DNA of 40,123 nt from a virus (Duplodnaviria; Heunggongvirae; Uroviricota; Caudoviricetes): IMG/VR virus record IMGVR_UViG_2537562231_000015, positions 1 through 40,123 of that record, one strand, 5' to 3'. Positions 12,467 through 38,577 of the stretch are shown here, piece by piece. Below the pieces are notes generated by a model. The model saw nothing but the letters and a program-made list of their open reading frames with translations. It was not told where the DNA came from and did no database searches. Each line of letters begins with the position of its first letter. The first letter of the stretch is position 1. Position numbers and translations under genes: made by a program.

Positions 12467-14248
12467 TTATATTTTAGCAAACGTTTCTAACGCCAAGCTA
12501 TCTGTTCTTTCTTTTATTAATGAATCATCCCATTTATGTTCTCTTGCTTCTGACTCACTAACAAACTCTGTAACTAATTTTAAATCAGATTTTTTATAAG
12601 ATTCTATTTTTTTGTGCAACTCATAATTCTTGCAATCTTCATTAAGTGAAAAACAGAGTGGTAGTAAATTACCAATCATACCCACGACTGACTCGTTAGT
12701 TTTGCTTTGAGATGATATGTGTTCCAAAGAAACTATATCCATTTTTAACTCTCGCGTCCCTCGTCTGATACGTTCCAACTTGTCAAAAATATAAACAATC
12801 AACTTCCTTTGCCCAGACTTTTTATTTGTATAAACAATATTCTTTGAAAATGCTTGTTTGAATATATTTTCTGAAGGCCCTTTCTGTGTAAAATAATCTA
12901 ATGCGTCATTAATAACACCCTCAACATCTCTTTTATTTAATGCCTTATTCATTCTTACTGCTAATACAGAATATTTTGCATCGATTCCAGATGGTCTTAG
13001 ACGACATACTGCATTAAACTTAAAGTGAAATGACTCTAAGGACTTCAAACATTCTATCAGCATTGATTGTGTAAGGGCTCTCGGTTTCTCTTTACGTTTT
13101 CTAAGTAATGAGAGTACAAATGGTCGAGGAATACTCACATTAAAAATCTCGAATGCTTTTAACGAGTTGTAAATTTCACGCTGATCAGGTTGAGGCCAGT
13201 CATCTGTATTTGGCGCTATTATTTTACAGTATAATTCAACATCATCATATAATTCGTTCAGAAATGATGCTGATGACAATAAAGTATTCTCATCTTGAAT
13301 CTCACGTTTAAAAGCACGATAAAGTTGATCTTCTCCAATATAATTATACTTAGAAAGCCACCACGTTCTAATATAATCAGCAATAGTGCTATTACTATCC
13401 CTAGACTCAATTTGAGTAACGATATAATCCCATTTTGTTTTTGCAATATCTACCGGATATGTTTGAGTGCAAGTTTGGAATACTTTATTCTTTATCAAAT
13501 CAATTGAACTTAAGTTTATCCCTCGAGCATTCAACACTTCAAAAATATCATAAGCATCATCCTCCTTACCTACAGATATTTTTACCAACTTCAAATAATT
13601 GGTAATCATTCTATATACAGCAGTCAAACAAAATATATAATCTTGGTTATTATAATGTTTTGCACCATCTCGCAACAATGCAGAACAGAGTGATTTCCTC
13701 CCTAGTTTTCTAGAAAGAAAAATTCCTGCATAACTTATACGTACATCCTCTTCACAAGATTCATCAACTTGATGCTCTTCGCGATCTTGATATTTTAACT
13801 TAAAATATGTTCTATCGCTATTTTTTGCTAATTTTTCAATAAATGTCTCACCATTTGAGGCTAATTGGCTTCTGCTAAATGTAGGACTCACAGTAACGAT
13901 ATATGTTTTAAATATATCATCCGCTAATGAATCTTGCCCTAAGGAACGCAATTTACGCGATATTAATGAAAGCAATATAGTAATAACTGAAAATCGTTGT
14001 TGTCCATCAACCACTTCTAATACATCATCACTATCTGCTCCAGAAAGAACAATAGTCCCTATAAAATATTCTGAACACTCCAAGTTCTGTCCATCTTCAT
14101 TCAACCTTATGTTTCTGACAATATCTTGCCATAATTCTTCAAGCTGAAGCTTTTCCCAACTAAACTCACGTTGATTACGTGGAATAACATATCTTTGTTT
14201 TACAGATAGAATGTTTTTTATATTTAGTGGTGTTGCATCAAAATTCAT
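12467..14248 (-). CDS. GmrSD-family (DUF262/ParB-like N-terminal, DUF1524-like C-terminal) putative modification-dependent nuclease
   Basis: 593-aa ORF; N-terminal YVIPRNQREFSW and VVDGQQR motifs typical of DUF262; C-terminal LEHI...GNLLPL resembles the DUF1524 His-Me finger; markedly AT-rich versus flanking phage genes. Confidence 0.65.
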   Translation of the reverse strand: MNFDATPLNIKNILSVKQRYVIPRNQREFSWEKLQLEELWQDIVRNIRLNEDGQNLECSEYFIGTIVLSGADSDDVLEVVDGQQRFSVITILLSLISRKLRSLGQDSLADDIFKTYIVTVSPTFSRSQLASNGETFIEKLAKNSDRTYFKLKYQDREEHQVDESCEEDVRISYAGIFLSRKLGRKSLCSALLRDGAKHYNNQDYIFCLTAVYRMITNYLKLVKISVGKEDDAYDIFEVLNARGINLSSIDLIKNKVFQTCTQTYPVDIAKTKWDYIVTQIESRDSNSTIADYIRTWWLSKYNYIGEDQLYRAFKREIQDENTLLSSASFLNELYDDVELYCKIIAPNTDDWPQPDQREIYNSLKAFEIFNVSIPRPFVLSLLRKRKEKPRALTQSMLIECLKSLESFHFKFNAVCRLRPSGIDAKYSVLAVRMNKALNKRDVEGVINDALDYFTQKGPSENIFKQAFSKNIVYTNKKSGQRKLIVYIFDKLERIRRGTRELKMDIVSLEHISSQSKTNESVVGMIGNLLPLCFSLNEDCKNYELHKKIESYKKSDLKLVTEFVSESEAREHKWDDSLIKERTDSLALETFAKI

Positions 14249-14368
14249 AACTTATCCTCAGAGACAACAAATTGATAATAATGTCCTATTCAAATGGCTA
14301 ATGATATGACATAAAAAAAGAAAAATGCAATGTACTACAAGAATATCAGTAAACGTTTCTAGCGCGCG

Positions 14369-14387
14369 CTCGTATCCCCGCCACGCC
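14369..14387 (-). other. cos site of the P2/186-like prophage (19-nt cohesive-end sequence)
   Basis: Minus strand reads GGCGTGGCGGGGATACGAG flanked by AAAGCGGGC and CGCGCGC, homologous to P2 cos GGCGAGGCGGGGAAAGCAC and oriented toward Q. Confidence 0.6.
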
Positions 14388-14432
14388 TGCCCGCTTTATG
14401 TAGTGGTTTTCATGCAGGTGCATGATCTACGC

Positions 14433-14458
14433 AAAAGCCCGCCAGTTCCGGCGGGCTT
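14433..14458 (-). terminator. Putative intrinsic terminator
   Basis: AAGCCCGCC/GGCGGGCTT 9-bp stem; on the minus strand followed by TTTTG. Confidence 0.4.
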
Positions 14459-14727
14459 CAGCTAAAACGATCCTCAAACGATCATGCGGATTCATGCGGC
14501 ATAGACATGCACCTGTGCGCCTTTAATCAAACATGGAATAATTATTTGTTCAGCGGGAGTAGCAATATAGCGGCGGCTATTGGTTTAGAAGGGCTTATGA
14601 TGACTGTTTTTGGTTAGAGTTTGAACGCCCAACATCGCCGGGCGGTGGTATTACTACATCATGGCAATGAGAAGGGGTGAACCCTTTGCCAGTTTGTCCG
14701 ACGATGATATCCATCCAGAGTAAGCGT

Positions 14728-15387
14728 TTATTCTGTTGAGATTGTAGATATTTCGGCTTGTTTTTTCTCTATGTACATCCGACATTCCGCAAGGCATTTA
14801 CCTACGGCACCACCGAAGTTTGGCCCTGACGAAAGCAGCAATGCATCGACATTCTTGATTGATTCAAAGAAGGAAGGTGAGGTTTCTGGATTAAGGTATG
14901 TCATCAATAACATCCTTGCTGAAAGGGTGCGATGCGATGATGTAATGTAGCTTTCATGCGCTGCATTTCTCTTATCAATAAAATCGTTATTACCCTTAAG
15001 AATGTAATCCATTGCAAGGTTATAATCGTTTTTGTACCTATTAGATTCAAGCGCTAAGGATAGGTACTGGGCACATGATTCCCGCACGTTCCGACATTCT
15101 TCTTTTTTTATCTCAATTTCCGTAGCAATTTGAGTTTGCACTTTCAGTGCTTTGGTTTGCTGCGCAATATTTTTGTCGAATTCAGATGATTGCCGTTTTG
15201 AGGTGATTTCAAATTGGCGGTGTGAACGATTCATAGCCCGCCATGCAACAAAAGCAGTTGCCGCAGCTGGCAGAACAGCTTTTGCGAGGTCAAACCATGG
15301 AGTCAGGGGCTCCTTTTGACTCGCAATTTGTACCGTTACCACGTCTTTAGCGGGCTTCAGTACTTCCAATAACTGAATGATGTCCAT
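14728..15387 (-). CDS. Hypothetical protein with one predicted transmembrane helix (cargo gene in the old/tin position)
   Basis: 219-aa ORF; hydrophobic segment LAKAVLPAAATAFVAWRAM; no family recognised; lies between cos and the tum/DinI module. Confidence 0.5.
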   Translation of the reverse strand: MDIIQLLEVLKPAKDVVTVQIASQKEPLTPWFDLAKAVLPAAATAFVAWRAMNRSHRQFEITSKRQSSEFDKNIAQQTKALKVQTQIATEIEIKKEECRNVRESCAQYLSLALESNRYKNDYNLAMDYILKGNNDFIDKRNAAHESYITSSHRTLSARMLLMTYLNPETSPSFFESIKNVDALLLSSGPNFGGAVGKCLAECRMYIEKKQAEISTISTE

Positions 15388-22018: not shown

Positions 22019-23050
22019 ATGACCATCAGAAAACAGCCGAACGGAAAATGGTTGTGTGAGTGCTATCCCAATGGACGCAATGGCAAGCGCGTGCGTAAGC
22101 AATTTGCCACGAAAGGCGAAGCCATTGCGTTTGAAAGCTTCACAATGGAAGAAGTGAATAAAAAACCGTGGTTGGGTGAAAAGGATGATCGGCGACGCCT
22201 ATCAGAATTAATTGAGCTTTGGTATTCCCTGTATGGTCAGACACTCGCAGACCCCAAGCGCCTCATGGCGAAACTTAGAATTATCTGTAATGGTCTAGGC
22301 GACCCCATCGCCTCTGAGCTGACAGCCGGAGACTTTACGAAATACCGCGAAGCACGGTTAAAAGGTGAAATACGAAATGAAGATGGCACGCTTATGTCGC
22401 CCGTTAAGCCCCGCACGGTAAACCTTGAACAGCGCAATCTATCATCGGTGTTCGGTACATTAAAAAAACTAGGACACTGGTCAGCACCAAACCCGCTGGC
22501 AGGACTTCCGACCTTCAAAATTGCCGAAGGTGAGCTGGCTTTTCTTTCCACGGACGAAATCAAGCGCCTGTTGGCGGCATGTGCTGAATCTCAAAGCCCT
22601 AGCTTACTAATGATTGCAAAAATATGCCTAGCTACTGGCGCACGGTGGAGTGAAGCAGAAAATCTGCAGGGCCATCAGTTATCCAAATACCGCATCACTT
22701 ATACCAAGACGAAGGGCAAGAAAAACCGTACCGTGCCAATATCTCAGGATCTTTACAACGAACTCCCTAAAAACAGAGGAAGGCTATTCACCCCATGCAG
22801 AAAAGCCTTTGAACGGGCAGTAAAACGAGCTGGTATTGAACTGCCAGAGGGACAATGCACCCACGTTCTACGCCATACATTCGCCAGCCATTTCATGATG
22901 AACGGCGGAAACATACTGGTACTGCGCGATATTTTGGGCCATGCCGATATAAAAATGACGATGATTTACGCCCATTTTTCTCCAGACCATCTGGAAGATG
23001 CAGTAACGAAAAACCCTTTGAACTTTATATACTTGTCGAATAACATGTAA
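22019..23050 (+). CDS. int: Tyrosine integrase (P2/186 type)
   Basis: 343-aa ORF; C-terminal HVLRHTFASHFMMNGG...LGHADIKMTMIYAHF catalytic motifs. Confidence 0.9.
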   Translation: MTIRKQPNGKWLCECYPNGRNGKRVRKQFATKGEAIAFESFTMEEVNKKPWLGEKDDRRRLSELIELWYSLYGQTLADPKRLMAKLRIICNGLGDPIASELTAGDFTKYREARLKGEIRNEDGTLMSPVKPRTVNLEQRNLSSVFGTLKKLGHWSAPNPLAGLPTFKIAEGELAFLSTDEIKRLLAACAESQSPSLLMIAKICLATGARWSEAENLQGHQLSKYRITYTKTKGKKNRTVPISQDLYNELPKNRGRLFTPCRKAFERAVKRAGIELPEGQCTHVLRHTFASHFMMNGGNILVLRDILGHADIKMTMIYAHFSPDHLEDAVTKNPLNFIYLSNNM

Positions 23051-23072: not shown

Positions 23073-24086
23073 GTGATCTTAATCTTAAATATGAAACCTA
23101 ATTTAATTTCACGTAAACAGTACCAACACCTCAAAAATGAGTTAAATAGACTTGAGAGCTTACCATATAGACGAGGAAACAACCCAACCAACCTCAGAAT
23201 ATTAAAACTAAGAGAAGATCTAACAAACTCTCTTGTTGAATCCAGAAAAAGAAATTCAAAAAAAATTAATAGAGGAAATGTTAGCTGTATAATATGCAAG
23301 AAAAATTTCAAAAGTGCTCATGGCCTATATGAGCACTATCGCGCCAAGCATAGCAATATGATTGAACACCCTACCTCATTGTTTAATAAAGAAATAAATG
23401 GCAATACAACACTGCTTGAAAGCATTTCGCATCCTGTCACAAAAGGTATACCAATAGCAGAACACGATAAAAAAATATCATCCATTACGCTAAACAGGGA
23501 AACTAAATATTTCAATGTAGATGCGTATAATCTGGCATGCCTTTCATTAACAAAAAGTGAAGCAATAAAAATCGCTAAAGATGAATTATTATCAAGGCAG
23601 TTTCTTGGACAAAAAAACATTCTAGAACCTACTCTACCGCCAGTCATATTTATAAATCCCTCTGATACAATTAGTATACCAGTTGTCACAAAAGGCAATA
23701 CTCATCTGCAAACAATATTACAGCGTGACTCTGGCGAACAGGTTGACTTTAAAAAAAGGGTTCTAAAAAACTTCTCAAATGTATGCGCAATAACAGGTTA
23801 CAACCTCCCAGTATTGCAGGCATGTCACCTTGAACCATTTTCTCAGACCCAAAACCATAGAACCAACAATGGAATACCTCTTGAACCTACCCTTCATGCC
23901 TTGCTTGACCGAGGTCTACTAGCCATACATCCAGATAATTTAACTATTCATTTTGCTATCGATTGCTATTACAAAAATATATATGAAGGAAAAAACATCA
24001 AACCTCATAAGATTGATTTAGATAAAAATTCACTGCTAATAATTTGGAAGAACTTTCTTTTGAATGTTAAAAACAGCCAACCGTAA
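23073..24086 (+). CDS. Zinc-finger plus HNH-like nuclease domain protein (cargo gene)
   Basis: 337-aa AT-rich ORF; C2H2-like CIICKKNF..HGLYEHYRAKH near N-terminus; C-terminal CAITGYN...QACHLEPF...NGIPL...HALLDRGLLAI resembles HNH (HNH_2-like) fold. Confidence 0.55.
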   Translation: MILILNMKPNLISRKQYQHLKNELNRLESLPYRRGNNPTNLRILKLREDLTNSLVESRKRNSKKINRGNVSCIICKKNFKSAHGLYEHYRAKHSNMIEHPTSLFNKEINGNTTLLESISHPVTKGIPIAEHDKKISSITLNRETKYFNVDAYNLACLSLTKSEAIKIAKDELLSRQFLGQKNILEPTLPPVIFINPSDTISIPVVTKGNTHLQTILQRDSGEQVDFKKRVLKNFSNVCAITGYNLPVLQACHLEPFSQTQNHRTNNGIPLEPTLHALLDRGLLAIHPDNLTIHFAIDCYYKNIYEGKNIKPHKIDLDKNSLLIIWKNFLLNVKNSQP

Positions 24087-24213
24087 GTTAGCCTAAAATT
24101 GGCGACAACTTGGCGGCAGAGCATTAAAAATGCGTAAAACGGATAAACACAGGATAATAGTAACACACTGTTTTTGAACGCAAACTACTGTTTTCATTGT
24201 ATTAAAAATAGTA

Positions 24214-24258
24214 TGTAGGAATTTCGGACGCGGGTTCAACTCCCGCCAGCTCCACCAC
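24214..24258 (+). ncRNA. ssrA: 3'-terminal fragment of tmRNA gene ssrA (T-arm and acceptor 3' strand ending CCA); attachment-site core
   Basis: ATGTAGGAATTTCGGACGCGGGTTCAACTCCCGCCAGCTCCACCA matches the E. coli ssrA 3' end from memory; upstream sequence is unrelated AT-rich DNA, so only the 3' portion is present. Confidence 0.75.
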
Positions 24259-24283
24259 TTGCTCTTCCGGATACGTCCGGAGA

Positions 24284-24316
24284 AATCCTGAAAGCCCGCA
24301 TAGCACAAGCTCTGCG
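24284..24316 (+). terminator. Intrinsic terminator downstream of ssrA 3' end
   Basis: GCCCGCA...TGCGGGC stem followed by TTTTTTG. Confidence 0.6.
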
Positions 24317-24367
24317 GGCTTTTTTGTGTCTACCGTTGTCCGAGGATATCCAGCTAAATCCAGTGAT

Positions 24368-24417
24368 TATTGGTATACGTTTAGGTATACGGTAGGATGT
24401 ATACCTAAACGCGTATA
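24368..24417. repeat. Integrase arm-type repeats (GGTATACG family), attL side of the P4-like element
   Basis: ATTGGTATACGTTTAGGTATACG plus inverted GTATACCTAAACGCGTATACC; near-identical 23-mer recurs at 38313-38336. Confidence 0.45.
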
Positions 24418-25051
24418 CCAATTCATGAAGGAGCGGCCAAATTGGCAAGAACGACACGCCCCCTGACCAACACAGAAGTACTGCGCGCTAAAGCGTTAGA
24501 AAAGGATCTAACGTTGCATGATGGCGATGGTCTTTTTCTACTCGTTAAAACGAACGGTAAGAAGTTATGGCGTTTCCGTTATCAACGTCCGGCAACAAAG
24601 CAACGGACAATGATGGGGCTAGGAGCCTTCCCAGCCCTTTCACTTGCTGACGCCCGACGCTTAAGAGCGGATTACCTTTCCTTGTTAGCCAACGGAATTG
24701 ACCCGCAAATTCAAGCTGAAATTGCAGAGGAACAGCAGCAAATCGCACAGGACAGTATTTTCTCGACGGTCGCCGCTAATTGGTTTCAGCTCAAAAGCAA
24801 AAGTGTTACCCCTGATTATGCAAAAGATATTTGGCGCTCATTGGAAAAAGATGTATTCCCCGCCGTTGGTGAGATGCCCGTTCAGCAGATCAAAGCTAGA
24901 ACATTGGTCGAAGCACTTGAGCCAGTCAAAGCTCGTGGGGCATTAGAGACTGTACGTCGTCTGGTGCAACGCATTAACGAAATAATGATTTATGCGGTTA
25001 ACACTGGCTTGATTGATGCAAACCCAGCATCAGGTGGGTAATGACTCCAAC

Positions 25052-25555
25052 TTATTGATAGTGTTTTATGTTCAGATAATGCCCGATGACTTTGTCATGC
25101 AGCTCCACCGATTTTGAGAACGACAGCGACTTCCGTCCCAGCCGTGCCAGGTGCTGCCTCAGATTCAGGTTATGCCGCTCAATTCGCTGCGTATATCGCT
25201 TGCTGATTACGTGCAGCTTTCCCTTCAGGCGGGATTCATACAGCGGCCAGCCATCCGTCATCCATATCACCACGTCAAAGGGTGACAGCAGGCTCATAAG
25301 ACGCCCCAGCGTCGCCATAGTGCGTTCACCGAATACGTGCGCAACAACCGTCTTCCGGAGCCTGTCATACGCGTAAAACAGCCAGCGCTGGCGCGATTTA
25401 GCACCGACATAGCCCCACTGTTCGTCCATTTCCGCGCAGACGATGACGTCACTGCCCGGCTGTATGCGCGAGGTTACCGACTGCGGCCTGAGTTTTTTAA
25501 ATGGCGGAAAATCGTGTTGAGGCCAACGCCCATAATGCGGGCGGTTGCCCGGCAT
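25052..25555 (-). CDS. insB: IS1 InsB
   Basis: 167-aa ORF matching IS1 InsB. Confidence 0.9.
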
Positions 25556-25749
25556 CCAACGCCATTCATGGCCATATCAATGATTTTCTGGTGCGTACCG
25601 GGTTGAGAAGCGGTGTAAGTGAACTGCAGTTGCCATGTTTTACGGCAGTGAGAGCAGAGATAGCGCTGATGTCCGGCGGTGCTTTTGCCGTTACGCACCA
25701 CCCCGTCAGTAGCTGAACAGGAGGGACAGCTGATAGAAACAGAAGCCAC
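25474..25749 (-). CDS. insA: IS1 InsA
   Basis: 91-aa [26 protein letters not shown]... matching IS1 InsA. Confidence 0.9.
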
Positions 25750-26411
25750 TGGAGCACCTCAAAAACACCATCATACACTAAATCAGTAAGTTGGCAGCAT
25801 CACCCATCAGGTGTTGGCATGGCCTTCGAAAAGCCAAAAAAACAAAACATGCCGACGCTTCGACCTGAAGAATTACCAAAGCTGATGCGTTCTTTAGTCA
25901 TGTCAAATCTGTCTATCCCGACTCGCTGTCTAATTGAATGGCAACTCCTGACTCTTGTGCGCCCTTCTGAAGCCTCCAGTACTCGGTGGGAAGAAATCGA
26001 TCTTCATGCAAAGCTCTGGACGATTCCTGCCGAACGGATGAAGGCTAAACGGGAACACATAATTCCTCTATCATCTCAGGCATTAGAGATTCTTAATGTG
26101 ATGAAGCCTATTAGTGCTCATCGTGAATATGTTTTTCCGAGTCGGAATGACCCAAAGAAACCAATGAACAGTCAGACTGCAAATGCAGCTTTAAAACGTA
26201 TTGGTTTTGGCGGAAAATTAGTTGCCCATGGATTACGTTCAATAGCAAGTACAGCCATGAATGAAGCTGGATTAAATCCTGATGTTATCGAGTCTGCCTT
26301 AGCCCACAGTGATAAAAATGAAGTTAGAAAAGCATACAATCGTTCTACTTATCTCGTGCAGCGAATTGAATTGATGGATTGGTGGGGAGAATACGTTAAA
26401 AATAAAAGGGG

Positions 26412-28121
26412 TTAGCCCCCCTTTTTTCTATACAATCTCAAGCACTCGTCCAATTCAATAAGTTGTGAATTACTTAATCGTTCTTTTATATAATAAAATA
26501 CATCTTTTACTGAAGCAATTTCTCTCATCGCTCTATTGCCCATTAAAACATAGTCTTGATACATTCCAATTCTGAAGAATGAATTTGCTGCGCAAGCCAA
26601 CATAATTACTTCGGTCATTGCAGGGAGATTTAAACGATTTGGCTTAAATTTATTTTTATCATATTCGTTAAAACAAGACAAAAAGTTTCTCAATGTTTTT
26701 ATATCAGCAATACCATTTGAAACATTAGTAAATGATTTATATAAATATGGAGAGCATGAATACCAATATATATCACAAACAAGTATAGAACTTCGCTTGT
26801 TCGCAAACTCAAGCCATTCACCCTTATTTCCATTATGCATTAAGTTATATAAGAAATAAAAATGCAACAACCCATTTTTATATTCTTTTTTGGATTGATC
26901 ATAGATTATCTCAATTTTGTCCATGATAGACTGCAAATCAGTGACTTCGCCTAAATTTAACATATTTAGGTATTCACTAAACCACTTCGCTATACTTTTA
27001 GCTGTAAATCCGTCTGCATTCCAGAGCCAATATTGTGCAGATATCTCTGCAACCATTACACCCGATGTTTCCATCACCCAATTAACAGACTCTCTTTTTT
27101 GACTGTAGTTTTTACGGCAAAAATTTATTATCACATGGCGAAGAAGTCGAAGCAATCCAGAGTAACTGAAGTGAGGTTCGCCAAAAAGAACCAGACAATC
27201 ACCAACAGGATTGTAGGCTTTCGAGATCATTGCATCAAGTGGCTTAAGCTCATGGACAAAAGAAGACCTGATTTTGTATAAATTATCTAAAGCTCTACTA
27301 AGGAAGCTATAGCGGATTGGATATCTCTCTGTTTCATTGAAATAATTTTCTTCAAGATTTTTCAGTATAAAATCTTTGAACCTTTTTTGTAATCTGAATT
27401 GTTTGCCTTCAATAAGTATTGATTTAATTTTACAAACATCCTCACCAGGCATATGCTCAAATACAGACTCTAATTCACCTCTGGTTTTTTGATCGTAGTC
27501 ATCCCAATCAGACTTATAGTTATCATTTCTTTGAGACAAAGACTCCAAGGCATAGACTAACATGGAATAAGTCAGGTCAAAGTTGGTTGACAATGATTCT
27601 TTTGAATCACTAATTATTTTTAACGCTGCCATTAAAGATTTAAAGGCAGATCTATTTAGATTCACTACATCTTTAATAAAAGCAGAAAACCCAGAGACAT
27701 CATCAAATGAAACTCTTCGATTAATCTCCACTAAATATGGGGCAACTTCAAGCGCAATTTTTGAGTGATGTTTATTAAAATTTGATAATGCACATATTTT
27801 TTTAACCGATTCTTTTTCTACTCTAGCCACACAATCAAAATAGAATTCCCATAATAAAATAAATTGTTGCCTATAATCCTCATCACCAGCCCTAACTACG
27901 ACTCCAGCTTCAATTCGTTCTGGTTTTTCGGTCAGGAGAGTATAGTTTACCACATAACAGTTTATACCATCATGACTTATTTTATTTGCTTTAAAAAGAG
28001 GGGAGGTGTTTTCCACCGAGAAAGACACATCAACATTTGAATAAAAAACAAATGTGCCATCGTGTTTTTCTATTTTATCTAAATCAAAGAACACTCCAGC
28101 TGATATCTGAAACATACTCAT
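26412..28121 (-). CDS. Hypothetical 569-aa protein in the P4 int-cos variable slot (candidate anti-phage defence)
   Basis: Long AT-rich ORF with no recognised family; contains an R-x4-H motif (RSSFVH); sits where P4 carries gop/beta/cII. Confidence 0.6.
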   Translation of the reverse strand: MSMFQISAGVFFDLDKIEKHDGTFVFYSNVDVSFSVENTSPLFKANKISHDGINCYVVNYTLLTEKPERIEAGVVVRAGDEDYRQQFILLWEFYFDCVARVEKESVKKICALSNFNKHHSKIALEVAPYLVEINRRVSFDDVSGFSAFIKDVVNLNRSAFKSLMAALKIISDSKESLSTNFDLTYSMLVYALESLSQRNDNYKSDWDDYDQKTRGELESVFEHMPGEDVCKIKSILIEGKQFRLQKRFKDFILKNLEENYFNETERYPIRYSFLSRALDNLYKIRSSFVHELKPLDAMISKAYNPVGDCLVLFGEPHFSYSGLLRLLRHVIINFCRKNYSQKRESVNWVMETSGVMVAEISAQYWLWNADGFTAKSIAKWFSEYLNMLNLGEVTDLQSIMDKIEIIYDQSKKEYKNGLLHFYFLYNLMHNGNKGEWLEFANKRSSILVCDIYWYSCSPYLYKSFTNVSNGIADIKTLRNFLSCFNEYDKNKFKPNRLNLPAMTEVIMLACAANSFFRIGMYQDYVLMGNRAMREIASVKDVFYYIKERLSNSQLIELDECLRLYRKKGG

Positions 28122-28412
28122 TCCTTAAACTCAATTGGATCAATCTATCTATATTAACGGATATATTAACAGAACAAAATAATCCTATGCAGTAGCCTAG
28201 CTACTCAAACAATTTCATTACGTTTGTAAGCAATACTCTCCCCACTACACCGTCGAAAGGCGGCTATTTACCACTCCCCTCAGAAGCCATCAGCGGCACA
28301 CTTACCAACATTACCGCGCGACGTCAGGCACCTCCCCTATCCCCCCCAGCCCCTTCCCGACGGTGCTCGGGCGCAAAAAACATTAGTAACGAGCACCAAC
28401 CGGGGGCGCGCA

Positions 28413-28431
28413 GTGCTTTCCCCGCCTCGCC
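28413..28431 (-). other. cos site of the P4-like satellite (identical to P2 19-nt cohesive end)
   Basis: Minus strand reads GGCGAGGCGGGGAAAGCAC exactly, within AAAGCGGGCGGGCGAGGCGGGGAAAGCACTGCGCGC. Confidence 0.8.
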
Positions 28432-28532
28432 CGCCCGCTTTGCGGGGCGGTTTTAATGCAGTTGCACTGACACGCTCAGACCGCGCCGGGAATGGCGCGG
28501 TCTGCAGAAAATGAGGCAGGGAAACGCATGCA

Positions 28533-28566
28533 AAGCCATGCACCTTATCGATGCATGGCTTTTTTC
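28533..28566. terminator. Hairpin with flanking A/T runs between cos and psu
   Basis: AGCCATGCA...TGCATGGCT stem followed by TTTTTT on the plus strand and preceded by an A-run (possible bidirectional terminator). Confidence 0.4.
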
Positions 28567-28595
28567 AGTAAAAACGGGCGGATTTTCGGGGAATT

Positions 28596-29168
28596 TTACA
28601 CAGACTGACGTGATGCCAGTTGCGCACTTTTACGCGAAAAAATCATGTTCTGCGCAGGGGTGAATTTTTCACGGCTGTCATCCACCGAAGCCGCGTCAGG
28701 CCTGAATCCGATGGTCGTTAAAATGTCGCTATCCTGTGCGGAATAATTAATTTTTTCACCCTTCGCAAGCCAGGACAGGAGGGCTTCACGCAGGGCATCT
28801 GTGGCACGCTGTATGGCACAGTTTCGGGCAATGGCCGTCAGATCACTGTAGCCCATCAGCTCCGGTGCCAGTGCCGCCGCCAGTGCTGTGCCGTGCTGCT
28901 GCATAAAATCATTCAGCCGGTCGCGGATGCTGATGTGCTGAACGGCTTCATGCGAACGAATATAACGACCGGCGGCCTGATTCACCTGCCATTTTCTGAC
29001 TTCGATAATATTGCGTAATTCGTCCAGGCGACTGACGTTTCTGCCTTCTCCTGACAGAAGCCGCAGATATTCCTGTTCGGCCGCAGCCAGCTCATTTTTG
29101 CGTTGCAGCCATGCTGCTTTGTTATTCTGACAGGTGTCAAAGGCCTGCTGTAAGGCTGTGCTTTCCAT
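28596..29168 (-). CDS. psu: Psu (polarity suppression / capsid decoration) protein
   Basis: 190-aa ORF, same length as P4 Psu, in the sid-delta-psu-cos arrangement. Confidence 0.85.
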   Translation of the reverse strand: MESTALQQAFDTCQNNKAAWLQRKNELAAAEQEYLRLLSGEGRNVSRLDELRNIIEVRKWQVNQAAGRYIRSHEAVQHISIRDRLNDFMQQHGTALAAALAPELMGYSDLTAIARNCAIQRATDALREALLSWLAKGEKINYSAQDSDILTTIGFRPDAASVDDSREKFTPAQNMIFSRKSAQLASRQSV

Positions 29169-29241
29169 CGTTATCTCTTTCTCATCATGCTGAAGAATAA
29201 AAATACGGTGTGTGGCGACGGCCGGTGTTAACCGGCAGCCC

Positions 29242-29742
29242 TCATTCCAGACGCAGCGAATATGATTGTGTTTTTAACCGTACTGGCGGCAGTTCCTGTT
29301 TTTCATGCAGGCGTTCTGCCAGTTCGTCCGGCGTGACCGGGCGGACAATGAAGCGGGTGATGGTCTGAAGCGTTTTAAACACCAGACCACAGCCCGGATC
29401 CGTGCACACATAAAAACGCTCGGTGACTTCCTGAGACAGACGCCGCGATGTTCTTGACAGTGCAAGGCCTTTACATCTCCGACAACAATATCCGGTAACA
29501 AGCATTCTTTTCGGGCGTTTCATACTGCCGGAGGCCGACGTCAGTGAATCGCGGTATCTCTGTTTGCCTGAAATGTATTCCATTCCTGAATCTTTACTGT
29601 CAGAGAAAAAGCTTTCACTCGCTTCAAATGTCGCAGAGCAATAAATATTCCGGCACTGTGCAATCATTATCTTGGTGCCATCGTCCATGAAATGTGCGCG
29701 ACGGGTGTGAGCAACATGTCCACACGACGGGCAGTAAATCAT
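29242..29742 (-). CDS. delta: Delta late-gene transactivator (tandem Ogr-like zinc finger)
   Basis: 166-aa ORF starting MIYCPSCGH with C-x2-C...C-x4-C pattern, a second Cys cluster further on; same length as P4 Delta. Confidence 0.85.
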   Translation of the reverse strand: MIYCPSCGHVAHTRRAHFMDDGTKIMIAQCRNIYCSATFEASESFFSDSKDSGMEYISGKQRYRDSLTSASGSMKRPKRMLVTGYCCRRCKGLALSRTSRRLSQEVTERFYVCTDPGCGLVFKTLQTITRFIVRPVTPDELAERLHEKQELPPVRLKTQSYSLRLE

Positions 29743-30473
29743 GACAGCAGTCCTCTGGCCTTAAGCTCTGCTCCCTGCTGGTCTATTTTGTCCTGCCACA
29801 CCTTGCGCTGTGCCGGTGTGCCTGCCACCTCATAATCCATGTGCGGGAGTGTTGCCGCTGACAGTCCGGTCAGCCGGAGAACCGGCTCGCCGGTGAGGCT
29901 GATTTGCATCTGTTTAATTTTCTGTTCCAGCGATGATTTCACCTGCTGCATGACAGCCTTTTCCGGTGCGACGTAGCCCTGATGGCCGGTGGTGTTGGCG
30001 AGCGGATTTTCCTGTACCAGGATACTCAGATGCATTGCCCGGACAAGCGCCTCACAGGTTTCATTCAGGGCGTGTTCCAGCTCATGCTCTGCATACAGAC
30101 TCAGAAGGTGATGATGTGCCTTCCGGTAGGCGGTGGCCGTGCTGTCACACGCCCCTTTCAGGCGTTCACGTTCAAAATTCAGCACCACGGCCAGATTGTC
30201 ATATTCCTGTACCAGCTCCCGGCGTGCCACGCGCTCAATGTGGCGCTGTTTCAGCTCGTCGCTCAGGACACCACCGGCTGCACGAAAGGCTGTGCGCCAG
30301 TCATCAGCGTCATTTCCGTCGGCCTGCGCCAGCGCATTTTTTTCCTGCTCTGCCCGTTCAATGGCCTTGACGGTCTCATCCATCAGTCGGGCGTTCTCAA
30401 GATGAGCGGCTCTGGCCTTTTCCAGTTGTGCCAGTGCGGGTTGCAGATATTCAGGGATGGTGTTGTCAGACAT
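29739..30473 (-). CDS. sid: Sid capsid size-determination protein
   Basis: ORF 29739..30491 trimmed to MSDNTIPEYLQ (244 aa, P4 Sid length); overlaps delta start. Confidence 0.85.
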   Translation of the reverse strand: MSDNTIPEYLQPALAQLEKARAAHLENARLMDETVKAIERAEQEKNALAQADGNDADDWRTAFRAAGGVLSDELKQRHIERVARRELVQEYDNLAVVLNFERERLKGACDSTATAYRKAHHHLLSLYAEHELEHALNETCEALVRAMHLSILVQENPLANTTGHQGYVAPEKAVMQQVKSSLEQKIKQMQISLTGEPVLRLTGLSAATLPHMDYEVAGTPAQRKVWQDKIDQQGAELKARGLLS

Positions 30474-30516
30474 TTTCCGGCTCCTCGTCACTTCAGATTA
30501 AGAAAATTGTGACGTA

Positions 30517-30573
30517 CACCGGACAACAACACGACGCATTGCAGATGTGCCAGCCCTGACACAGGAGACTCAT
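30517..30573. promoter_or_regulatory. Two TGT-N12-ACA dyads in the sid upstream region (candidate Delta/Ogr sites for Psid and a divergent late promoter)
   Basis: TGTgacgtacaccggACA at 30517-30534 and TGTgccagccctgacACA at 30556-30573. Confidence 0.35.
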
Positions 30574-30639
30574 CCTCAGACCGGCAAGCCAGGAAAAGGT
30601 CGCAGGAAAAACCGGCTTACTGTTTGTTTTTTTATATTT

Positions 30640-30770
30640 TACTGTTCACCTCTGTTCACCATAAGAAAAAAGATAAGTAATACAGTAAGTTAAAGGGTGA
30701 ACAATCGCAGTAATGACTGTTCACCGTCTGTTCACCACTGTTCACCCGCTCATGGACTTTTTGTGCTGTT
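30640..30770. repeat. P4-type replication origin iterons (TGTTCACC octamers)
   Basis: Six copies of TGTTCACC or its complement at 30643, 30653, 30696, 30718, 30729 and 30739. Confidence 0.6.
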
Positions 30771-31025
30771 TACTACTGTTTGTTTTTATTAATTCGCCGT
30801 GAATGAATAAGAAGAAACGATTTGTATTTCACTATAAAAATTACGAATTGCATTAAGTGGCTTTAAATGACTTTAAGTGGGAATGAACAAAAAACACACA
30901 GTCATTGTAAGGCTGCCGGAACAAATCCCCCCTGTTGCGTCTGCCAAAAATATTCACAAAATAAAGCGCTACCCGAAGCCGGACGGACTTATCCGGTGCT
31001 GTATGGACATTAACGAGGTAGCCCG

Positions 31026-31292
31026 ATGCAAGCTGTTTTTTCTTCCCCGTCTCCCGCCCCTGTGACGCCACTGATGCCGCTGCCGGACATCACGCAGGAG
31101 CGTTTTTTACGTCTGCCGGAAGTGATGCACCTGTGCGGCCTGTCACGCTCGACCATCTATGAACTCATCCGTAAGGGGGAATTTCCGCCGCAGGTGAGTC
31201 TTGGCGGTAAAAATGTGGCCTGGCTGCACTCTGAAGTCACCGCATGGATGGCCGGACGCATTGCCGGACGCAAACGGGGGTACGACGCATGA
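31026..31292 (+). CDS. vis: Vis/AlpA-family excision regulator (P4 orf88 equivalent)
   Basis: 88-aa ORF with AlpA-like HTH ([27 protein letters not shown]); GAGGTAG SD. Confidence 0.75.
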
Positions 31293-31325
31293 TGATGCCC
31301 GCTCTGCAAAAACTCCCTTTTTCTG

Positions 31326-31355
31326 GCTTGCCTTTTTCCGGCATTTGCGGATATA
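31326..31355 (+). promoter_or_regulatory. Candidate sigma70 promoter (PLE-like)
   Basis: TTGCCT, 18-bp spacer, TATAGT; upstream of the RNA-immunity region. Confidence 0.35.
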
Positions 31356-31510
31356 GTTTTTCCGCTGCCGCAAAATCGGCAGCCGGGCGTAGGAACCCGA
31401 GTTACTTCAAGGCGACATATGACGCGCCATGCGTCTTTTTTTACGTCGTTGCTTCGGCACACCTGTTTTTCTGGCTGTGGTTTTTAAACCGTAGCCTCTG
31501 TCAGATAATG

Positions 31511-31590
31511 GTGGTCCGGGCGGGGCAGCCTTCGGGCTGGCCGGTTTCCTTGAAGGCCGGTATTCCTACCCCCGTCCGGGCTACCACCCA
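31511..31590 (+). ncRNA. cI: Candidate P4-type CI immunity RNA
   Basis: Structured GC-rich segment containing CCTTGAAGG and TATTCCTAC, complementary to repeated GTAGGAAC...ACTTCAAGG elements at 31385-31412 and 31595-31640. Confidence 0.45.
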
Positions 31591-31645
31591 TGAGCGTAGG
31601 AACTCCAGTGGTAGCTGTAACTGTTACTTCAAGGAGGCTGCCATC

Positions 31646-31843
31646 ATGGCTACAACCCTTACCCCCTCACACCCTGAATTTGTCTTTGTGTTTGCGGCTG
31701 TCCGTCGCGCAGGCCGTCATCCCCGTATCTGTATGCTTCGCACCGTCGCCGGTGATGAACGCAGCGCCCGCCGTTCCCTTGTCCGTGACTATGTGCTCTC
31801 CCTTGCTGCCCGTCTGCCGGTGGTGGAGGTGTCCCGTGCGTAA
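31646..31843 (+). CDS. Small protein downstream of the immunity RNA
   Basis: 65-aa ORF with AAGGAGG SD that overlaps the downstream target repeat. Confidence 0.4.
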
Positions 31844-32100
31844 TAAAAAAGCCCCTCAGACCGTCTCAGCACGTCATGACGCCCGTGAACACCTCAGCAT
31901 TGAGGCTTACCATAAGCTCAACCGCGCCAGCGCCGTATCCCAGTTTGTTGGGGGTGATTTGATTCACCGTGAACTCTCCGGCCTGCATCAGCTCTACATT
32001 CCGCATATTTTCAGCGTAAGCGTAAACTGACCGCCGTATGTAGCCATCAGACGAGAATTGGTAACTTAGACGCCCATCTGATATAGACGGACATCTAAGT

Positions 32101-32526
32101 ATGGAATTACAGGACTGGCGAAAAGAACCTCGTAAAAACTATTCGAATGAATTCAAACTTCGTATGGTGGAACTGGCATCACAACCTGGAGCTTGTGTTG
32201 CACAGATTGCACGTGAAAATGGCGTCAATGATAATGTTATTTTCAAATGGCTCAGGCTCTGGCAGAACGAAGGGCGTGTTTCGCGGCGTCTTCCGGTAAC
32301 GACCTCTTCTGACACTGGCGTTGAATTATTACCTGTAGAAATAACGCCGGATGAGCAGAAAGAACCTGTGGCGGCCATTGCGCCGTCTTTATCCACTTCC
32401 ACTCAGACCAGAGTCAGTGCCAGTTCCTGCAAGGTGGAATTCCGTCACGGTAACATGACGCTGGAAAATCCATCGCCAGAGCTGCTCACAGTGTTGATCC
32501 GTGAACTGACCGGGAGGGGAAGATGA
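32101..32526 (+). CDS. IS66-family accessory protein (orf1/TnpA)
   Basis: 141-aa ORF, first gene of the IS66 three-gene array. Confidence 0.8.
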   Translation: MELQDWRKEPRKNYSNEFKLRMVELASQPGACVAQIARENGVNDNVIFKWLRLWQNEGRVSRRLPVTTSSDTGVELLPVEITPDEQKEPVAAIAPSLSTSTQTRVSASSCKVEFRHGNMTLENPSPELLTVLIRELTGRGR

Positions 32527-32873
32527 TCTCACTCCCATCAGGTACCCGTATCTGGCTCGTTGCCGGCGTTACCGATATGCGTAAATCCTTCAACGGACTG
32601 GGAGAACAGGTACAACATGTGCTGAATGATAATCCCTTCTCCGGTCACCTGTTTATCTTCCGTGGCCGACGGGGTGACACCGTCAAAATTCTTTGGGCTG
32701 ATGCTGATGGTCTGTGCCTGTTCACCAAACGCCTGGAGGAAGGCCAGTTTATCTGGCCTGCGGTACGTGACGGCAAGGTATCCATTACCCGCTCGCAACT
32801 GGCAATGCTCCTCGATAAGCTGGACTGGCGTCAGCCAAAAACATCCAGCCGTAACTCACTGACAATGTTGTAA
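32523..32873 (+). CDS. IS66-family Orf2 (TnpB)
   Basis: 116-aa ORF overlapping orf1 stop; conserved IS66 orf2 size. Confidence 0.85.
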   Translation: MISLPSGTRIWLVAGVTDMRKSFNGLGEQVQHVLNDNPFSGHLFIFRGRRGDTVKILWADADGLCLFTKRLEEGQFIWPAVRDGKVSITRSQLAMLLDKLDWRQPKTSSRNSLTML

Positions 32874-32903
32874 AAAACTCCTGACCGCATTATAAAAACG
32901 GTC

Positions 32904-34517
32904 ATGAGTCAGAAATACCTCATTCGCATCGCAGAGCTGGAAAGGTTGCTCTCTGAGCAGGCTGAAGCCCTCCGTCAGAAAGACCAGCAACTGAGTCTGG
33001 TTGAAGAGACGGAAGCCTTCCTGCGCTCTGCACTGACACGTGCCGAAGAAAAGATCGAAGAAGATGAACGGGAAATAGAACATCTGCGGGCTCAGATAGA
33101 AAAACTGCGCCGGATGCTGTTCGGTACCCGTTCTGAAAAACTGCGTCGTGAAGTTGAACTGGCTGAGGCTCTGCTGAAACAACGTGAACAGGACAGCGAT
33201 CGTTACAGTGGGCGGGAAGACGATCCTCAGGTTCCCCGCCAGTTGCGACAGTCGCGCCATCGTCGTCCGTTACCGGCACACCTTCCCCGTGAAATACACC
33301 GCCTGGAGCCAGAAGAAAGCTGTTGCCCGGAGTGTGGCGGTGAGCTGGATTATCTGGGGGAAGTCAGCGCTGAACAGCTGGAACTGGTGAGCAGTGCCCT
33401 GAAAGTGATCCGCACAGAACGGGTAAAAAAAGCCTGTACAAAATGTGACTGTATTGTTGAAGCACCGGCGCCGTCCCGCCCGATAGAGCGTGGTATCGCG
33501 GGCCCCGGATTACTTGCCCGCGTGTTAACGGGAAAATACTGCGAACATCTGCCACTGTATCGTCAGAGTGAAATCTTTGCCCGCCAGGGTGTCGAACTGA
33601 GCCGGGCCTTACTCTCCAACTGGGTTGACGCGTGCTGCCAGTTAATGACACCGGTGAATGATGCCCTGTACCGTTATGTAATGAACACCCGCAAGGTTCA
33701 CACTGATGACACACCGGTAAAGGTACTGGCACCGGGTCAGAAAAAGGCGAAAACAGGGCGTATCTGGACGTATGTCCGGGATGATCGCAATGTGGGTTCG
33801 TCATCTCCTCCAGCGGTCTGGTTCGCGTACTCGCCGAACCGGCAGGGGAAACACCCGGAGCAACACCTCCGCCCCTTCCGGGGTATCCTGCAGGCGGATG
33901 CGTTCACAGGTTACGACAGGTTGTTCAGTGCAGAACGTGAAGGTGGTGCACTGACAGAAGTTGCGTGCTGGGCCCATGCCCGGCGAAAAATCCACGATGT
34001 ATACATCAGCAGCAAAAGTGCGACGGCAGAAGAAGCCCTGAAGCGAATCAGTGAACTGTACGCCATCGAGGATGAAATACGGGGATTACCGGAGTCAGAG
34101 CGTCTTGCCGTCAGGCAGCAGCGAAGCAAAGTGTTACTGACGTCGCTGCATGAATGGATGGTGGAGAAGAATGGTACGCTGTCGAAAAAATCCAGACTGG
34201 GCGAAGCGTTCAGCTATGTACTGAATCAGTGGGATGCCCTCTGTTATTACAGTGATGACGGTCTGGCGGAGGCGGATAATAATGCTGCGGAAAGAGCGCT
34301 TCGTGCAGTCTGTCTCGGAAAGAAAAACTTTATGTTCTTTGGCAGCGATCACGGCGGCGAGCGTGGAGCACTGTTGTACGGGCTGATCGGCACCTGCCGT
34401 CTGAACGGTATCGATCCGGAAGCGTATCTGCGCCATATCCTGAGCGTACTGCCGGAATGGCCTTCCAACCGAGTTGACGAACTCCTGCCATGGAACGTAG
34501 TACTCACCAATAAATAA
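32904..34517 (+). CDS. IS66-family transposase (TnpC)
   Basis: 537-aa ORF with N-terminal coiled coil, zinc-finger-like CPECGG and C-terminal DDE region. Confidence 0.9.
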   Translation: MSQKYLIRIAELERLLSEQAEALRQKDQQLSLVEETEAFLRSALTRAEEKIEEDEREIEHLRAQIEKLRRMLFGTRSEKLRREVELAEALLKQREQDSDRYSGREDDPQVPRQLRQSRHRRPLPAHLPREIHRLEPEESCCPECGGELDYLGEVSAEQLELVSSALKVIRTERVKKACTKCDCIVEAPAPSRPIERGIAGPGLLARVLTGKYCEHLPLYRQSEIFARQGVELSRALLSNWVDACCQLMTPVNDALYRYVMNTRKVHTDDTPVKVLAPGQKKAKTGRIWTYVRDDRNVGSSSPPAVWFAYSPNRQGKHPEQHLRPFRGILQADAFTGYDRLFSAEREGGALTEVACWAHARRKIHDVYISSKSATAEEALKRISELYAIEDEIRGLPESERLAVRQQRSKVLLTSLHEWMVEKNGTLSKKSRLGEAFSYVLNQWDALCYYSDDGLAEADNNAAERALRAVCLGKKNFMFFGSDHGGERGALLYGLIGTCRLNGIDPEAYLRHILSVLPEWPSNRVDELLPWNVVLTNK

Positions 34518-34655
34518 GCGTCAATACGGTGCTCCGTTGACGCTTACTTTTCAGCTACCTGAATGAAGATATTGATTTTGTGCTGAATGAGCTGAAAGCC
34601 AAAGGCCTGTGCCGCGATTTTCTCGCCCAGCAGAAAGACCGGGGAGACAGGACGC

Positions 34656-35111
34656 ATGTTTGATTTTCCCCAGCCCGGTGAGATTTACCGTTCTGCCGGT
34701 TTTCCCGATGTGGCCGTGGTCGGCATTCTGGAAGACGGTATTCCGTGGGAAATGCCGTACCGCTGCCCGGACATTGTCTGGAACCCGTACCGCCGTAAAT
34801 TCAGTATCCTTGTGCGTATCCTCGCTGACGGGCGCACCACAGACATCCCGCTGGGGCGTTTTCTGCGGGAATTTACCTGTGACCGTCCTGACCTGTTCAA
34901 ACGCAGCCCCGTAAACCGGCATGCGGTACTGAAAGAAATGGCCGGAGACCCGGAATTACAGAAATGGCGGGAGAAATATCTGGATATTTACCCGCAGGAC
35001 ACTGTTCCGGTCAGCCGGGCGGCACCGGTGGCGCGGGAATGGCGGGAAATTCCCCGCACGGAGCCTGACCCGGAAATCACCCCGGATAACAGTTACCGCA
35101 ATTATCTGTAA
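34656..35111 (+). CDS. P4 orf151-like protein
   Basis: 151-aa ORF, same length and position as P4 orf151. Confidence 0.55.
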   Translation: MFDFPQPGEIYRSAGFPDVAVVGILEDGIPWEMPYRCPDIVWNPYRRKFSILVRILADGRTTDIPLGRFLREFTCDRPDLFKRSPVNRHAVLKEMAGDPELQKWREKYLDIYPQDTVPVSRAAPVAREWREIPRTEPDPEITPDNSYRNYL

Positions 35112-35246
35112 TTAAAAAACGACACCCGAAAAATTAAATGTGCGTATTCGCGCAGGGATACGCACGTCTTCAGGAGACGCAGATATGCCTTATCAGTTAA
35201 TGCAACCGGCACGGAATGCAGTCATCTGTCACAGGGAGGAAAGCAA

Positions 35247-35567
35247 ATGAAAACACCCTTACCGCCCGTCTTACGCGCTGCCCTTTACCGTCGCGCTGTC
35301 GCCTGTGCCTGGCTGACCGTGTGCGAACGTCAGCACCGCTACCCGCATCTCACCCTTGAGTCACTGGAGGCGGCCATCGCCGCTGAGCTGGAAGGCTTTT
35401 ATCTGCGCCAGCACGGTGAGGAAAAAGGGCGTCAGATAGCCTGTGCCCTGCTGGAAGATTTAATGGAATCCGGCCCCCTGAAGGCCGCGCCGTCGCTGTC
35501 CTTTCTCGGGCTGGTTGTGATGGATGAACTCTGTGCCCGTCACATAAAAGCGCCGGTACTGCACTGA
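35247..35567 (+). CDS. P4 orf106-like protein
   Basis: 106-aa ORF directly upstream of alpha. Confidence 0.55.
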
Positions 35568-35581
35568 AGGAGAACAACACC

Positions 35582-37915: not shown

Positions 37916-37921
37916 CCCACC

Positions 37922-37947
37922 TGACCGGCATCTGCCGGTCTTTTTTT
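37922..37947 (+). terminator. Intrinsic terminator after alpha
   Basis: GACCGGCA-tct-GCCGGTC stem followed by TTTTTTT. Confidence 0.7.
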
Positions 37948-37954
37948 ATCCCGA

Positions 37955-38270
37955 CCTCCCCCGAAGGTGAACAATCCACTGTTCACCCTTCACCGTATAT
38001 TCACCCGTTATCACACTGAAATTAAAAGAGAAAAATGAAAGGTGAACAGTGTGAACAATCAAATCAAAAAAAACTTTTTTCTCCCTGTGTGATTTCAGTA
38101 CGGGGGATTAATCACCAGTAGGAGTCACACCGGCAGAATGCCGGAGGTGAAGAATCGAATGTTCACCCTTCACCCATTATTCACCACCTATCATACTGAA
38201 ATAAAAGGAGAAAAAAGAAAGGTGAACAGTGTGAACAGTTCTTTCGAAAAAAAATTTTTTTCCTGTACGA
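37955..38270. repeat. crr-like cis replication region: two ~125-bp direct repeats with TGTTCACC/GGTGAACA iterons
   Basis: Units at about 37955-38080 and 38140-38268 align along their length, separated by about 60 bp. Confidence 0.65.
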
Positions 38271-38312
38271 TATAGCATCAATCCAAGTAAAAATGCGCTT
38301 TCATTTCACATT

Positions 38313-38571: not shown

Positions 38572-38577
38572 TGATGG

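Follow-up and report, generated by a model that had tools for sequence, protein, structure and literature searches.

The 45-nt segment at 24213-24257 of the window (the whole stretch of 40,123 nucleotides of viral-record DNA analysed here) is very probably the boundary shared by a P2-family prophage and a P4-like satellite in a tandem array at the tmRNA gene ssrA. This segment is the attR of the prophage and simultaneously the core of the satellite attL. The complete array would begin with ssrA, beyond the window, and run through the P2-family prophage, the 45-nt copy, the P4-like satellite and the degenerate core to native DNA and ypjA; each element has a tyrosine integrase of its own, and its attP takes in the ssrA 3′ end. 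Since the attP includes this end, integration would rebuild the gene with element-borne sequence and an element-borne terminator, and the former ssrA 3′ end would be displaced to the far side of the incoming element. When tyrosine recombinases integrate elements into tRNA or tmRNA genes, the copy in attP makes the gene whole and displaces the original 3′ end (Reiter 1989; Williams 2002, 2003). The features of the window are collected in Table 1.

Table 1. Features of the window, with their positions, strands and the evidence or remarks that go with them.
Feature	Position	Strand	Evidence or remarks
186/Fels-2-like P2-family (Peduoviridae) prophage, right-hand ~24 kb (two thirds)	1-24212		95-96% identity to the MARGA_3 prophage
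Prophage tyrosine integrase, P2/186 type, 343 aa	22019-23050	+	Pfam Int_N and Phage_integrase
HNH endonuclease-domain cargo gene	23073-24086	+	Pfam HNH_2 8.7e-11; PADLOC HNH 4.6e-9
Conserved prophage att arm, ~115 nt	24100-24212	+	Adjoins the 45-nt block on its left; alignable with the attP arm of Cartapus
Orphan ssrA 3′ fragment	24213-24257	+	Acceptor-proximal helix part, T-arm, acceptor 3′ strand with CCA; 45/45 ssrA identity
P4-like satellite, 10.8 kb plus 3.3 kb of IS insertions	24258-38398		PHROG, Pfam and Rfam matches; identity to NS-NP030 and ATCC 8739
Satellite-supplied intrinsic terminator	24291-24327	+	Inverted repeat 24291-24304/24309-24322, then T-run
Direct repeat ATTGGTATACGTTTAGGTATACG, 23 nt	24369-24391	+	Partner at 38324-38346 near the other satellite end, 96% identity
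Satellite P4-type integrase gene	24442-26415	+	Halves 24442-25036 and 25814-26415; split by IS1
IS1, 768 bp	25037-25804	-	NCBIfam transpos_IS1; sequence read
psu	28596-29168		phrog_6366 7.6e-101
delta	29242-29742		phrog_603 1.6e-67
sid	29739-30491		phrog_6165 8.4e-116
AlpA/Vis-type excisionase/regulator	31026-31292		2.3e-17
c4-a1b1	31351-31403		Rfam, above gathering score
isrK	31364-31441		Rfam, above gathering score
C4 antisense RNA (CI RNA)	31504-31591		Rfam, 86 bits
IS66-family element (tnpA, tnpB, tnpC)	32016-34547	+	NCBIfam IS66 TnpA, TnpB and transposase; 8-bp duplication TTTTCAGC
alpha primase-helicase	35582-37915		Pfam domains
Degenerate ssrA-like core, satellite attR	38399-38417	+	TTCAAACTCCGCCAGC-----CA; aligned with ET734, MARGA_3, K-12 and ATCC 8739
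Native ssrA-downstream DNA, ATCATGATTGGACGG...	38418-39353		Includes the 3′ part of ypjA, minus strand; autotransporter barrel match

The 45-nt ssrA fragment

Compared with the 363-nt ssrA of strain NS-NP030, the segment (atgtaggaatttcggacgcgggttcaactcccgccagctccacca) is identical at every one of its 45 positions to nt 319-363 of the E. coli gene, that is, to the T-arm, acceptor 3′ strand and CCA at the 3′ end of the host ssrA, with the terminal CCA closing at 24257. The original prediction had recognised these 45 nt as the ssrA 3′ end but had placed them at 24214-24258, one base away from their true position. Similarity to ssrA breaks off sharply at 24212, and the identical suffix is exactly 45 nt long. 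When the whole ssrA was used as a blastn-short query against the 40-kb window, nt 319-363 were matched with E=1.4e-20, and the rest of the gene was absent, the other matches being 11-14-mers with E of at least 0.04. A 26-nt core, with up to 3 mismatches allowed, occurred once in the window as against 0/100 shuffles. Moreover, prophage-only genomes align up to 24257 and satellite-only genomes align from 24210, and the fragment gives the exact borders of both elements, with 24257 as the last base of the prophage and 24258-38417 as the extent of the satellite.

The prediction had also held that nothing but the 3′ end of ssrA is present, and had proposed a tmRNA model and BLAST as the check; with both now run on the window, the homology stands and no complete ssrA had been misread. 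ARAGORN reported 0 tmRNA and 0 tRNA in the 40-kb window, Rfam at the gathering score returned no tmRNA there (matching only C4, isrK and c4-a1b1 at ~31.35-31.59 kb), and BLAST found nt 319-363 alone, so the fragment is not a full-length tmRNA by either RF00023 or ARAGORN, and a full or split tmRNA in the window was rejected. A permissive local Rfam scan did align tmRNA to 24168-24257 at 35.5 bits (gathering score 47), with canonical pairing restricted to the T-arm and the acceptor 3′ part. We rejected the 5′ extension of this alignment to 24168, which consists of gaps and non-canonical pairs and has no ssrA identity. Sub-threshold Rfam matches at 24190-24500 to IsrM, permuted tmRNA and several miRNA families were likewise discarded, as they reflect only the terminator hairpin, the T-arm or GGTATACC palindromes.

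It is therefore extremely improbable that the fragment is a chance similarity, an assembly chimera or a complete ssrA that was misread. Apart from the sub-threshold full-model alignment just described, which is full of non-canonical pairs, such a reading could appeal to a 177-nt 'ssrA' called by PGAP in strain PSS-08-2, but it would have to account for the perfect identity and its E value, for the shuffles, for the lack of any ssrA similarity 5′ of 24213, and for the recurrence of the same junction in 311 independently finished genomes. The fragment itself would have no tmRNA function, its sole expected activity being that of a recombination site for prophage excision.

The PGAP call, a 'tmRNA ssrA' at 5982-6158 of E. 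coli PSS-08-2, lies at the equivalent prophage/satellite junction and seems to be spurious, a partial call triggered by the 45-nt fragment. Annotation pipelines can therefore miscall a partial tmRNA at such junctions.

The prophage and the satellite on either side

Window position 1 falls inside the prophage. The genes present comprise baseplate/tail, lysis, capsid, terminase and portal genes, a cargo hotspot, a DinI-like gene and replication gene A (endonuclease), followed by Dam, CII, Rha/Apl/Cox-like genes, CI, integrase, HNH cargo and the att arm. This is the gene-module content of the P2-family 186/Fels-2 type, as judged by nucleotide identity to the annotated MARGA_3 prophage and to phage records; the Klebsiella phage Kp48xx records match the prophage with 83% coverage and 95.8% identity, and the prophage ORFs equal their annotated homologs in length. 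The integrase homologs of MARGA_3, ET734 and Cartapus bear the annotation site-specific integrase.

As had been predicted, prophage cargo precedes the fragment, in the form of the HNH gene that follows the P2-type integrase. What fills the slot between integrase and att varies, other strains having GapS1, a RES-domain protein or hypothetical genes there; TOK-001, PSS-08-2 and 1002W03, for instance, have the same junction but different cargo there (GapS1 or hypothetical genes). The att arm is kept whatever the cargo, since matches to genomes with the tandem array begin at ~24093-24100 irrespective of the upstream gene.

A second cargo slot, at 12467-15387 between the portal and replication genes, encodes a 593-aa protein that matches PADLOC HEC-06/Orf5 (7e-75) and, more weakly, SspE and Type IV restriction enzyme models; the 219-aa ORF beside it has no family match. 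This slot is probably an anti-phage defence locus in a P2 hotspot.

The prophage side of the junction can be read directly in a free phage. The genome of Escherichia phage Cartapus (NC_070909, Peduoviridae) contains the identical 45-nt block, and its order is CI, integrase, cargo, arm, 45 nt, terminator, BRCT/exonuclease gene and ogr. Because the block stands between the integrase/cargo/arm side and the terminator/BRCT/ogr side, it is the Cartapus attP, and the DNA to its right is the DNA that follows intact ssrA in MARGA_3. An attP containing the ssrA 3′ end is thus found in a free-phage genome; it follows that phages of this type have these 45 nt of ssrA in their attP, and that in the window the block is the attR. 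ET734 has this integrase, HNH gene, arm and 45-nt block as well, and there native DNA and ypjA come straight after the block.

On the other side, at least 220 nt from 24258 onwards are 100% identical to the DNA that comes right after intact ssrA in NS-NP030 and ATCC 8739, and the satellite as a whole is 98-99.9% identical to the elements adjoining intact ssrA in these two strains, the two IS insertions apart. The idea that two elements use one ssrA 3′ end is thereby borne out from both directions, by the Cartapus attP with its same 45 nt and by a satellite flank that equals post-ssrA DNA. The terminator hairpin in this flank is also found after intact ssrA in NS-NP030, ATCC 8739 and K-12; it serves ssrA in satellite-only strains, whereas in the window it is preceded by the orphan fragment only. 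The direct repeats near the two satellite ends (24369-24391 and 38324-38346), a family with an inverted copy at 24378-24411, are candidate arm-type Int-binding sites.

The satellite order is terminator, integrase, hotspot ORF, psu, delta, sid, ori-like iterons, alpA/vis and CI-RNA immunity region, and then icd-like, disrupted epsilon, orf151-like, DUF5375 gene, alpha primase-helicase and crr-like iterons. The region at 31351-31591 is the P4-type CI-RNA immunity region of the satellite. The octamer TGTTCACC occurs 14 times in the window (1.4 expected), with clusters at 30643-30746 (6 copies) and 37966-38228 (5 copies), which we take to match the P4 alpha-protein iterons of ori and crr; a 120-nt direct repeat is present at 37961-38080 and 38141-38260. 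The satellite has the P4-like core set in its conserved order (Moura de Sousa & Rocha 2021) and lacks capsid and tail genes, the integrase and epsilon being present but IS-interrupted.

The hotspot between integrase and psu contains, on the minus strand at 26412-28121, a 569-aa ORF with no Pfam, NCBIfam or PHROG family and a weak PADLOC match to Cas13-ApeA (7e-6). The gene is also present in NS-NP030 and ATCC 8739, and its product is a candidate uncharacterised defence protein.

The P4-type integrase had been placed about 185 bp beyond the fragment, and its gene indeed starts 185 nt past the CCA end; what had been overlooked is that IS1 splits it, that an IS66-family element has entered the satellite too, and that arrays of this kind are common and already on record. 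The N-terminal half matches Arm-DNA-bind_3 and Phage_int_M, and the C-terminal half matches positions 202-395 of NCBIfam PRK09692. The IS1 target duplication is the 9-bp CATCAGGTG, at 25028-25036 and 25805-25813. Once IS1 and one duplication are removed, a 398-aa Int is restored that is 100% identical to the NS-NP030 integrase WP_000124719.1; the insertion is therefore recent, and Int was functional until recently. The IS66-family element cuts the epsilon-like derepression gene after ~60 of its 95 codons, as placed by the breakpoints relative to NS-NP030 and by translation. Since integrase and epsilon are both disrupted, the autonomy of the satellite is doubtful: it has probably lost the ability to excise or to derepress a helper by itself, and in this strain it would be locked in place, with the helper-derepression gene lost.

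At the right end of the satellite, where a degenerate core had been predicted near 38399-38415, alignment located one at 38399-38417. Its letters are TTCAAACTCCGCCAGCCA, which align to ssrA as TTCAA(+A)CTCC(-C)GCCAGC(-TCCAC)CA, and MARGA_3 and ATCC 8739 have the same attR form with the five-base deletion (Delta5). The sole exact identity between the attL and attR cores of the satellite is the 8-nt CCGCCAGC. Strand exchange would take place there, 5′ of the deletion, as required by the published Delta T357 outcome of CP4-57 excision (PMC10107115).

The native DNA that begins at 38418 is the one that ET734 has behind its ssrA block, without a difference, and its ypjA part is 99.9% identical to the ypjA regions of many E. 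coli. The ypjA homology stops at 39353, and ypjA is truncated there by a second IS66-family element, which runs from 39354 and encodes a transposase C-terminus of that family (minus strand, 39384-40085).

Order of arrival in the array

The whole array can be followed in E. coli MARGA_3. Its left part reads recN, bamE, ratA, smpB, intact ssrA, BRCT gene, ogr, D and prophage, and its right part CI, integrase, HNH, 45-nt fragment, P4-type integrase, alpha, degenerate core and ypjA. By analogy with this syntenic genome, an intact ssrA would lie, as had been presumed, at the far end of the prophage, beyond the window; the left copy of the prophage repeat, inside intact ssrA, is visible only in MARGA_3. 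The window itself has the right prophage copy and both satellite copies of the repeat, perfect at 24213-24257 and degenerate at 38399-38417, and each element has its own integrase beside its att site, P2-type at 22019-23050 and P4-type, split by IS1, at 24442-26415. Each element is also found alone, the prophage in ET734 and the satellite in NS-NP030 and ATCC 8739.

To place the junction among genomes we used megablast with at least 80% coverage on 5,426 complete E. coli genomes, which yields counts that depend on the threshold and ignore kinship: the arm, the 45 nt and the P4-type integrase occur together in 311 (~6%), intact ssrA with the satellite integrase in 385, and the arm and the 45 nt joined to native DNA in 28. 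A synthetic-junction query for the reverse order (satellite end, core and the ogr-side arm of the prophage) matched 0 of the 5,426. Intact ssrA adjoins the prophage arm in at least 172 genomes, a count obtained with one version of the variable gene-proximal arm. We make no claim that helper and satellite are enriched next to each other, since that arm is too variable (172 vs 311) to provide a reliable denominator.

Beyond E. coli, we considered 80 species-representative loci with close relatives of the satellite Int, from Enterobacterales and two Alteromonadales. An intact tmRNA gene ends ~185 nt upstream in 60 of them, and most of the remaining 20 have perfect or Delta T-type fragments in its place.

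Tandem arrangements of other kinds were seen as well. In Colwellia sp. MB3u-41 (3512-7182) a P2-type integrase 47% identical to that of the window lies ~1.5 kb upstream of a P4-type integrase, with a tmRNA-3′-like fragment at 5815-5839 between both, which suggests the same prophage-plus-island layout outside Enterobacterales. At ssrA of ET734 (28900-32400), two P2-family prophages that share one type of integrase lie in tandem, and NS-NP030 (28890-30300) has two P4-integrase islands in tandem at ssrA, joined by TTCAAACTCCGCCAGCCCAC.

With moderate confidence, we favour an order in which the satellite came first and the prophage second. The satellite would have been resident at first, as in ATCC 8739, the prophage would then have integrated into intact ssrA upstream of it, and IS1 and the IS66-family element would later have disabled the satellite integrase and the derepression gene. 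ATCC 8739 has the same 10.9-kb satellite, with the same Int protein and Delta5 attR, between intact ssrA and ypjA, and the window equals this state plus the prophage and the IS insertions. Since ATCC 8739 is the likely pre-prophage state, the prophage is probably the second arrival. The two IS insertions in the satellite, as against prophage ORFs of homolog length, are a further point for satellite first. The Delta5 attR lacks the 5′ part of the 45-nt block and therefore offers the prophage no target, leaving the live gene as the only one, from which the order ssrA, prophage, satellite follows.

The same array could have been built in the opposite order, the prophage arriving first and the satellite then entering the prophage attR (the block plus native DNA) and not the live gene, although we judge this unlikely. 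The 45-nt block with its whole T-arm and 3′ end, next to native DNA as in ET734, would be a complete target for a P4-type integrase, and the satellite Int is undamaged except for the very recent IS1 insertion. Satellites that arrive second should however sometimes give the order ssrA, satellite, prophage, of which there are 0 examples against 311 of the observed order, which argues that satellites are seldom second at the gene-proximal copy. In addition, satellite-only genomes with identical ends exist (ATCC 8739 and the 385 with intact ssrA and integrase), and a prophage arm joined to native DNA is seen in only 28 genomes.

There is also a modest chance, well short of even, that the array was imported whole, or that one of its elements was swapped, by homologous recombination between flanking core genes or shared element DNA. 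Different parts of the window resemble different genomes, which makes it a mosaic: ET734 is the match for the prophage end (99.5%), NS-NP030 and ATCC 8739 for the left end of the satellite (99.9%), and SCPM-O-B-9504 for its right end together with ypjA (99.9%). For the 1-kb junction, no complete genome by itself gives a match above 90%, and the cargo slots differ among otherwise similar prophages. On this reading the fragment would record integrations that took place in another strain, but its identity would be unchanged, and the junction would still have been born of site-specific integration.

Comparison with known elements at ssrA

The arrangement is a member of the known tandem arrays of integrative elements at ssrA, ordinary and already described; in E. 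coli and Salmonella, the tmRNA site ranks among the two prophage hotspots with the greatest diversity (PMC3603311). Among the P4-integrase islands at ssrA in Table 1 of PMC10107115, for which Williams 2003 and Wang 2009 are the sources given there, CP4-57 is entered as 'CGCCAGC-CCACCA', whereas the attR class 'CGCCAGC-----CA' comprises Eco48X, OI108 and the Stm27X of Salmonella LT2; the entries for the P2-integrase phages Fels-2 and SopE-phi have them leave a perfect ssrA end. By its letters, the attR of the window satellite belongs to the published class 'CGCCAGC-----CA'.

The cryptic P4-like element CP4-57 of K-12, with its integrase IntA, resembles the window satellite in its site at ssrA, in the downstream DNA ATCATGATTGGACGG... 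with ypjA, in the terminator hairpin supplied to ssrA, and in the ssrA-like attR core TTCA(A/G)ACTCCGCCAGC common to both. The K-12 attR, annotated as pseudogene psaA, is TTCAGACTCCGCCAGC-CCACCA before the same downstream DNA, and lacks one base (Delta T357) where the window attR lacks five. The two also differ in IntA and in cargo, and K-12 has no prophage between ssrA and the island. CP4-57 excision inactivates tmRNA (PMC10107115), whereas the satellite attL of the window lies outside the live ssrA gene. The window thus has the imperfect attR of this 'rescue switch', as do Stm27X, Eco48X and OI108, but it has no attL within live ssrA: the attL is the orphan 45 nt, the prophage intervenes and the integrase is disrupted. 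It follows from this geometry that, unlike in K-12 CP4-57, the imperfect attR of the satellite should no longer be able to mutate live ssrA directly, although such shielding by the prophage is moot in this strain because the satellite integrase is broken. This consequence of a prophage lying between ssrA and a P4-type island is not stated in the literature examined.

We give little credence to two further readings, namely that prophage insertion rewires the CP4-57-type switch into a two-step, helper-gated one, or that the 311-to-0 bias and the frequent adjacency reflect selection for a satellite in cis beside its helper and not mere hotspot sharing. If the switch were rewired, satellite excision would put the 5-nt-deleted 3′ end into the prophage attR and not into live tmRNA, and live ssrA would acquire the defect only through a later excision of the prophage with a crossover 5′ of the deletion. 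The minor idea of ssrA shielding aside, the window raises no new question and is one more case of ssrA as a long-known integration hotspot.

Fels-2 and SopE-phi are P2-family phages that integrate at ssrA (Pelludat et al. 2003, via PMC3630104 and PMC10107115). These two and Cartapus share with the window prophage the order of CI, integrase, cargo, attP with the ssrA 3′ block, terminator and ogr/D late genes. They differ in that the cargo of the window prophage is of the HNH and HEC-06/Orf5 types and in that identity is only 85-90% from integrase to att.

The P4 family (PMC8628076; Rousset et al. 2022, PMC9122126) has integrase, hotspot, psu, delta, sid, alpA, CI RNA, epsilon and alpha in the order found in the window satellite, which also resembles it in having TGTTCACC iterons at ori-like and crr-like positions. 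Unlike P4, the window satellite sits at ssrA and not at leuX, and with integrase and epsilon disrupted by IS elements it is probably no longer autonomous. These two papers on P2/P4 defence hotspots make no mention of ssrA or of tandem or helper-adjacent placement.

A comparable case is Salmonella Typhimurium LT2, with Fels-2 (P2 integrase) and Stm27X (P4 integrase) both at ssrA. In LT2 as in the window, the ssrA 3′ end is the integration site of a prophage of P2 type and of an element with a P4 integrase; the former leaves the gene end perfect, and the attR class of Stm27X (Table 1 of PMC10107115) is exactly that of the window satellite. The host species and the element variants are different.
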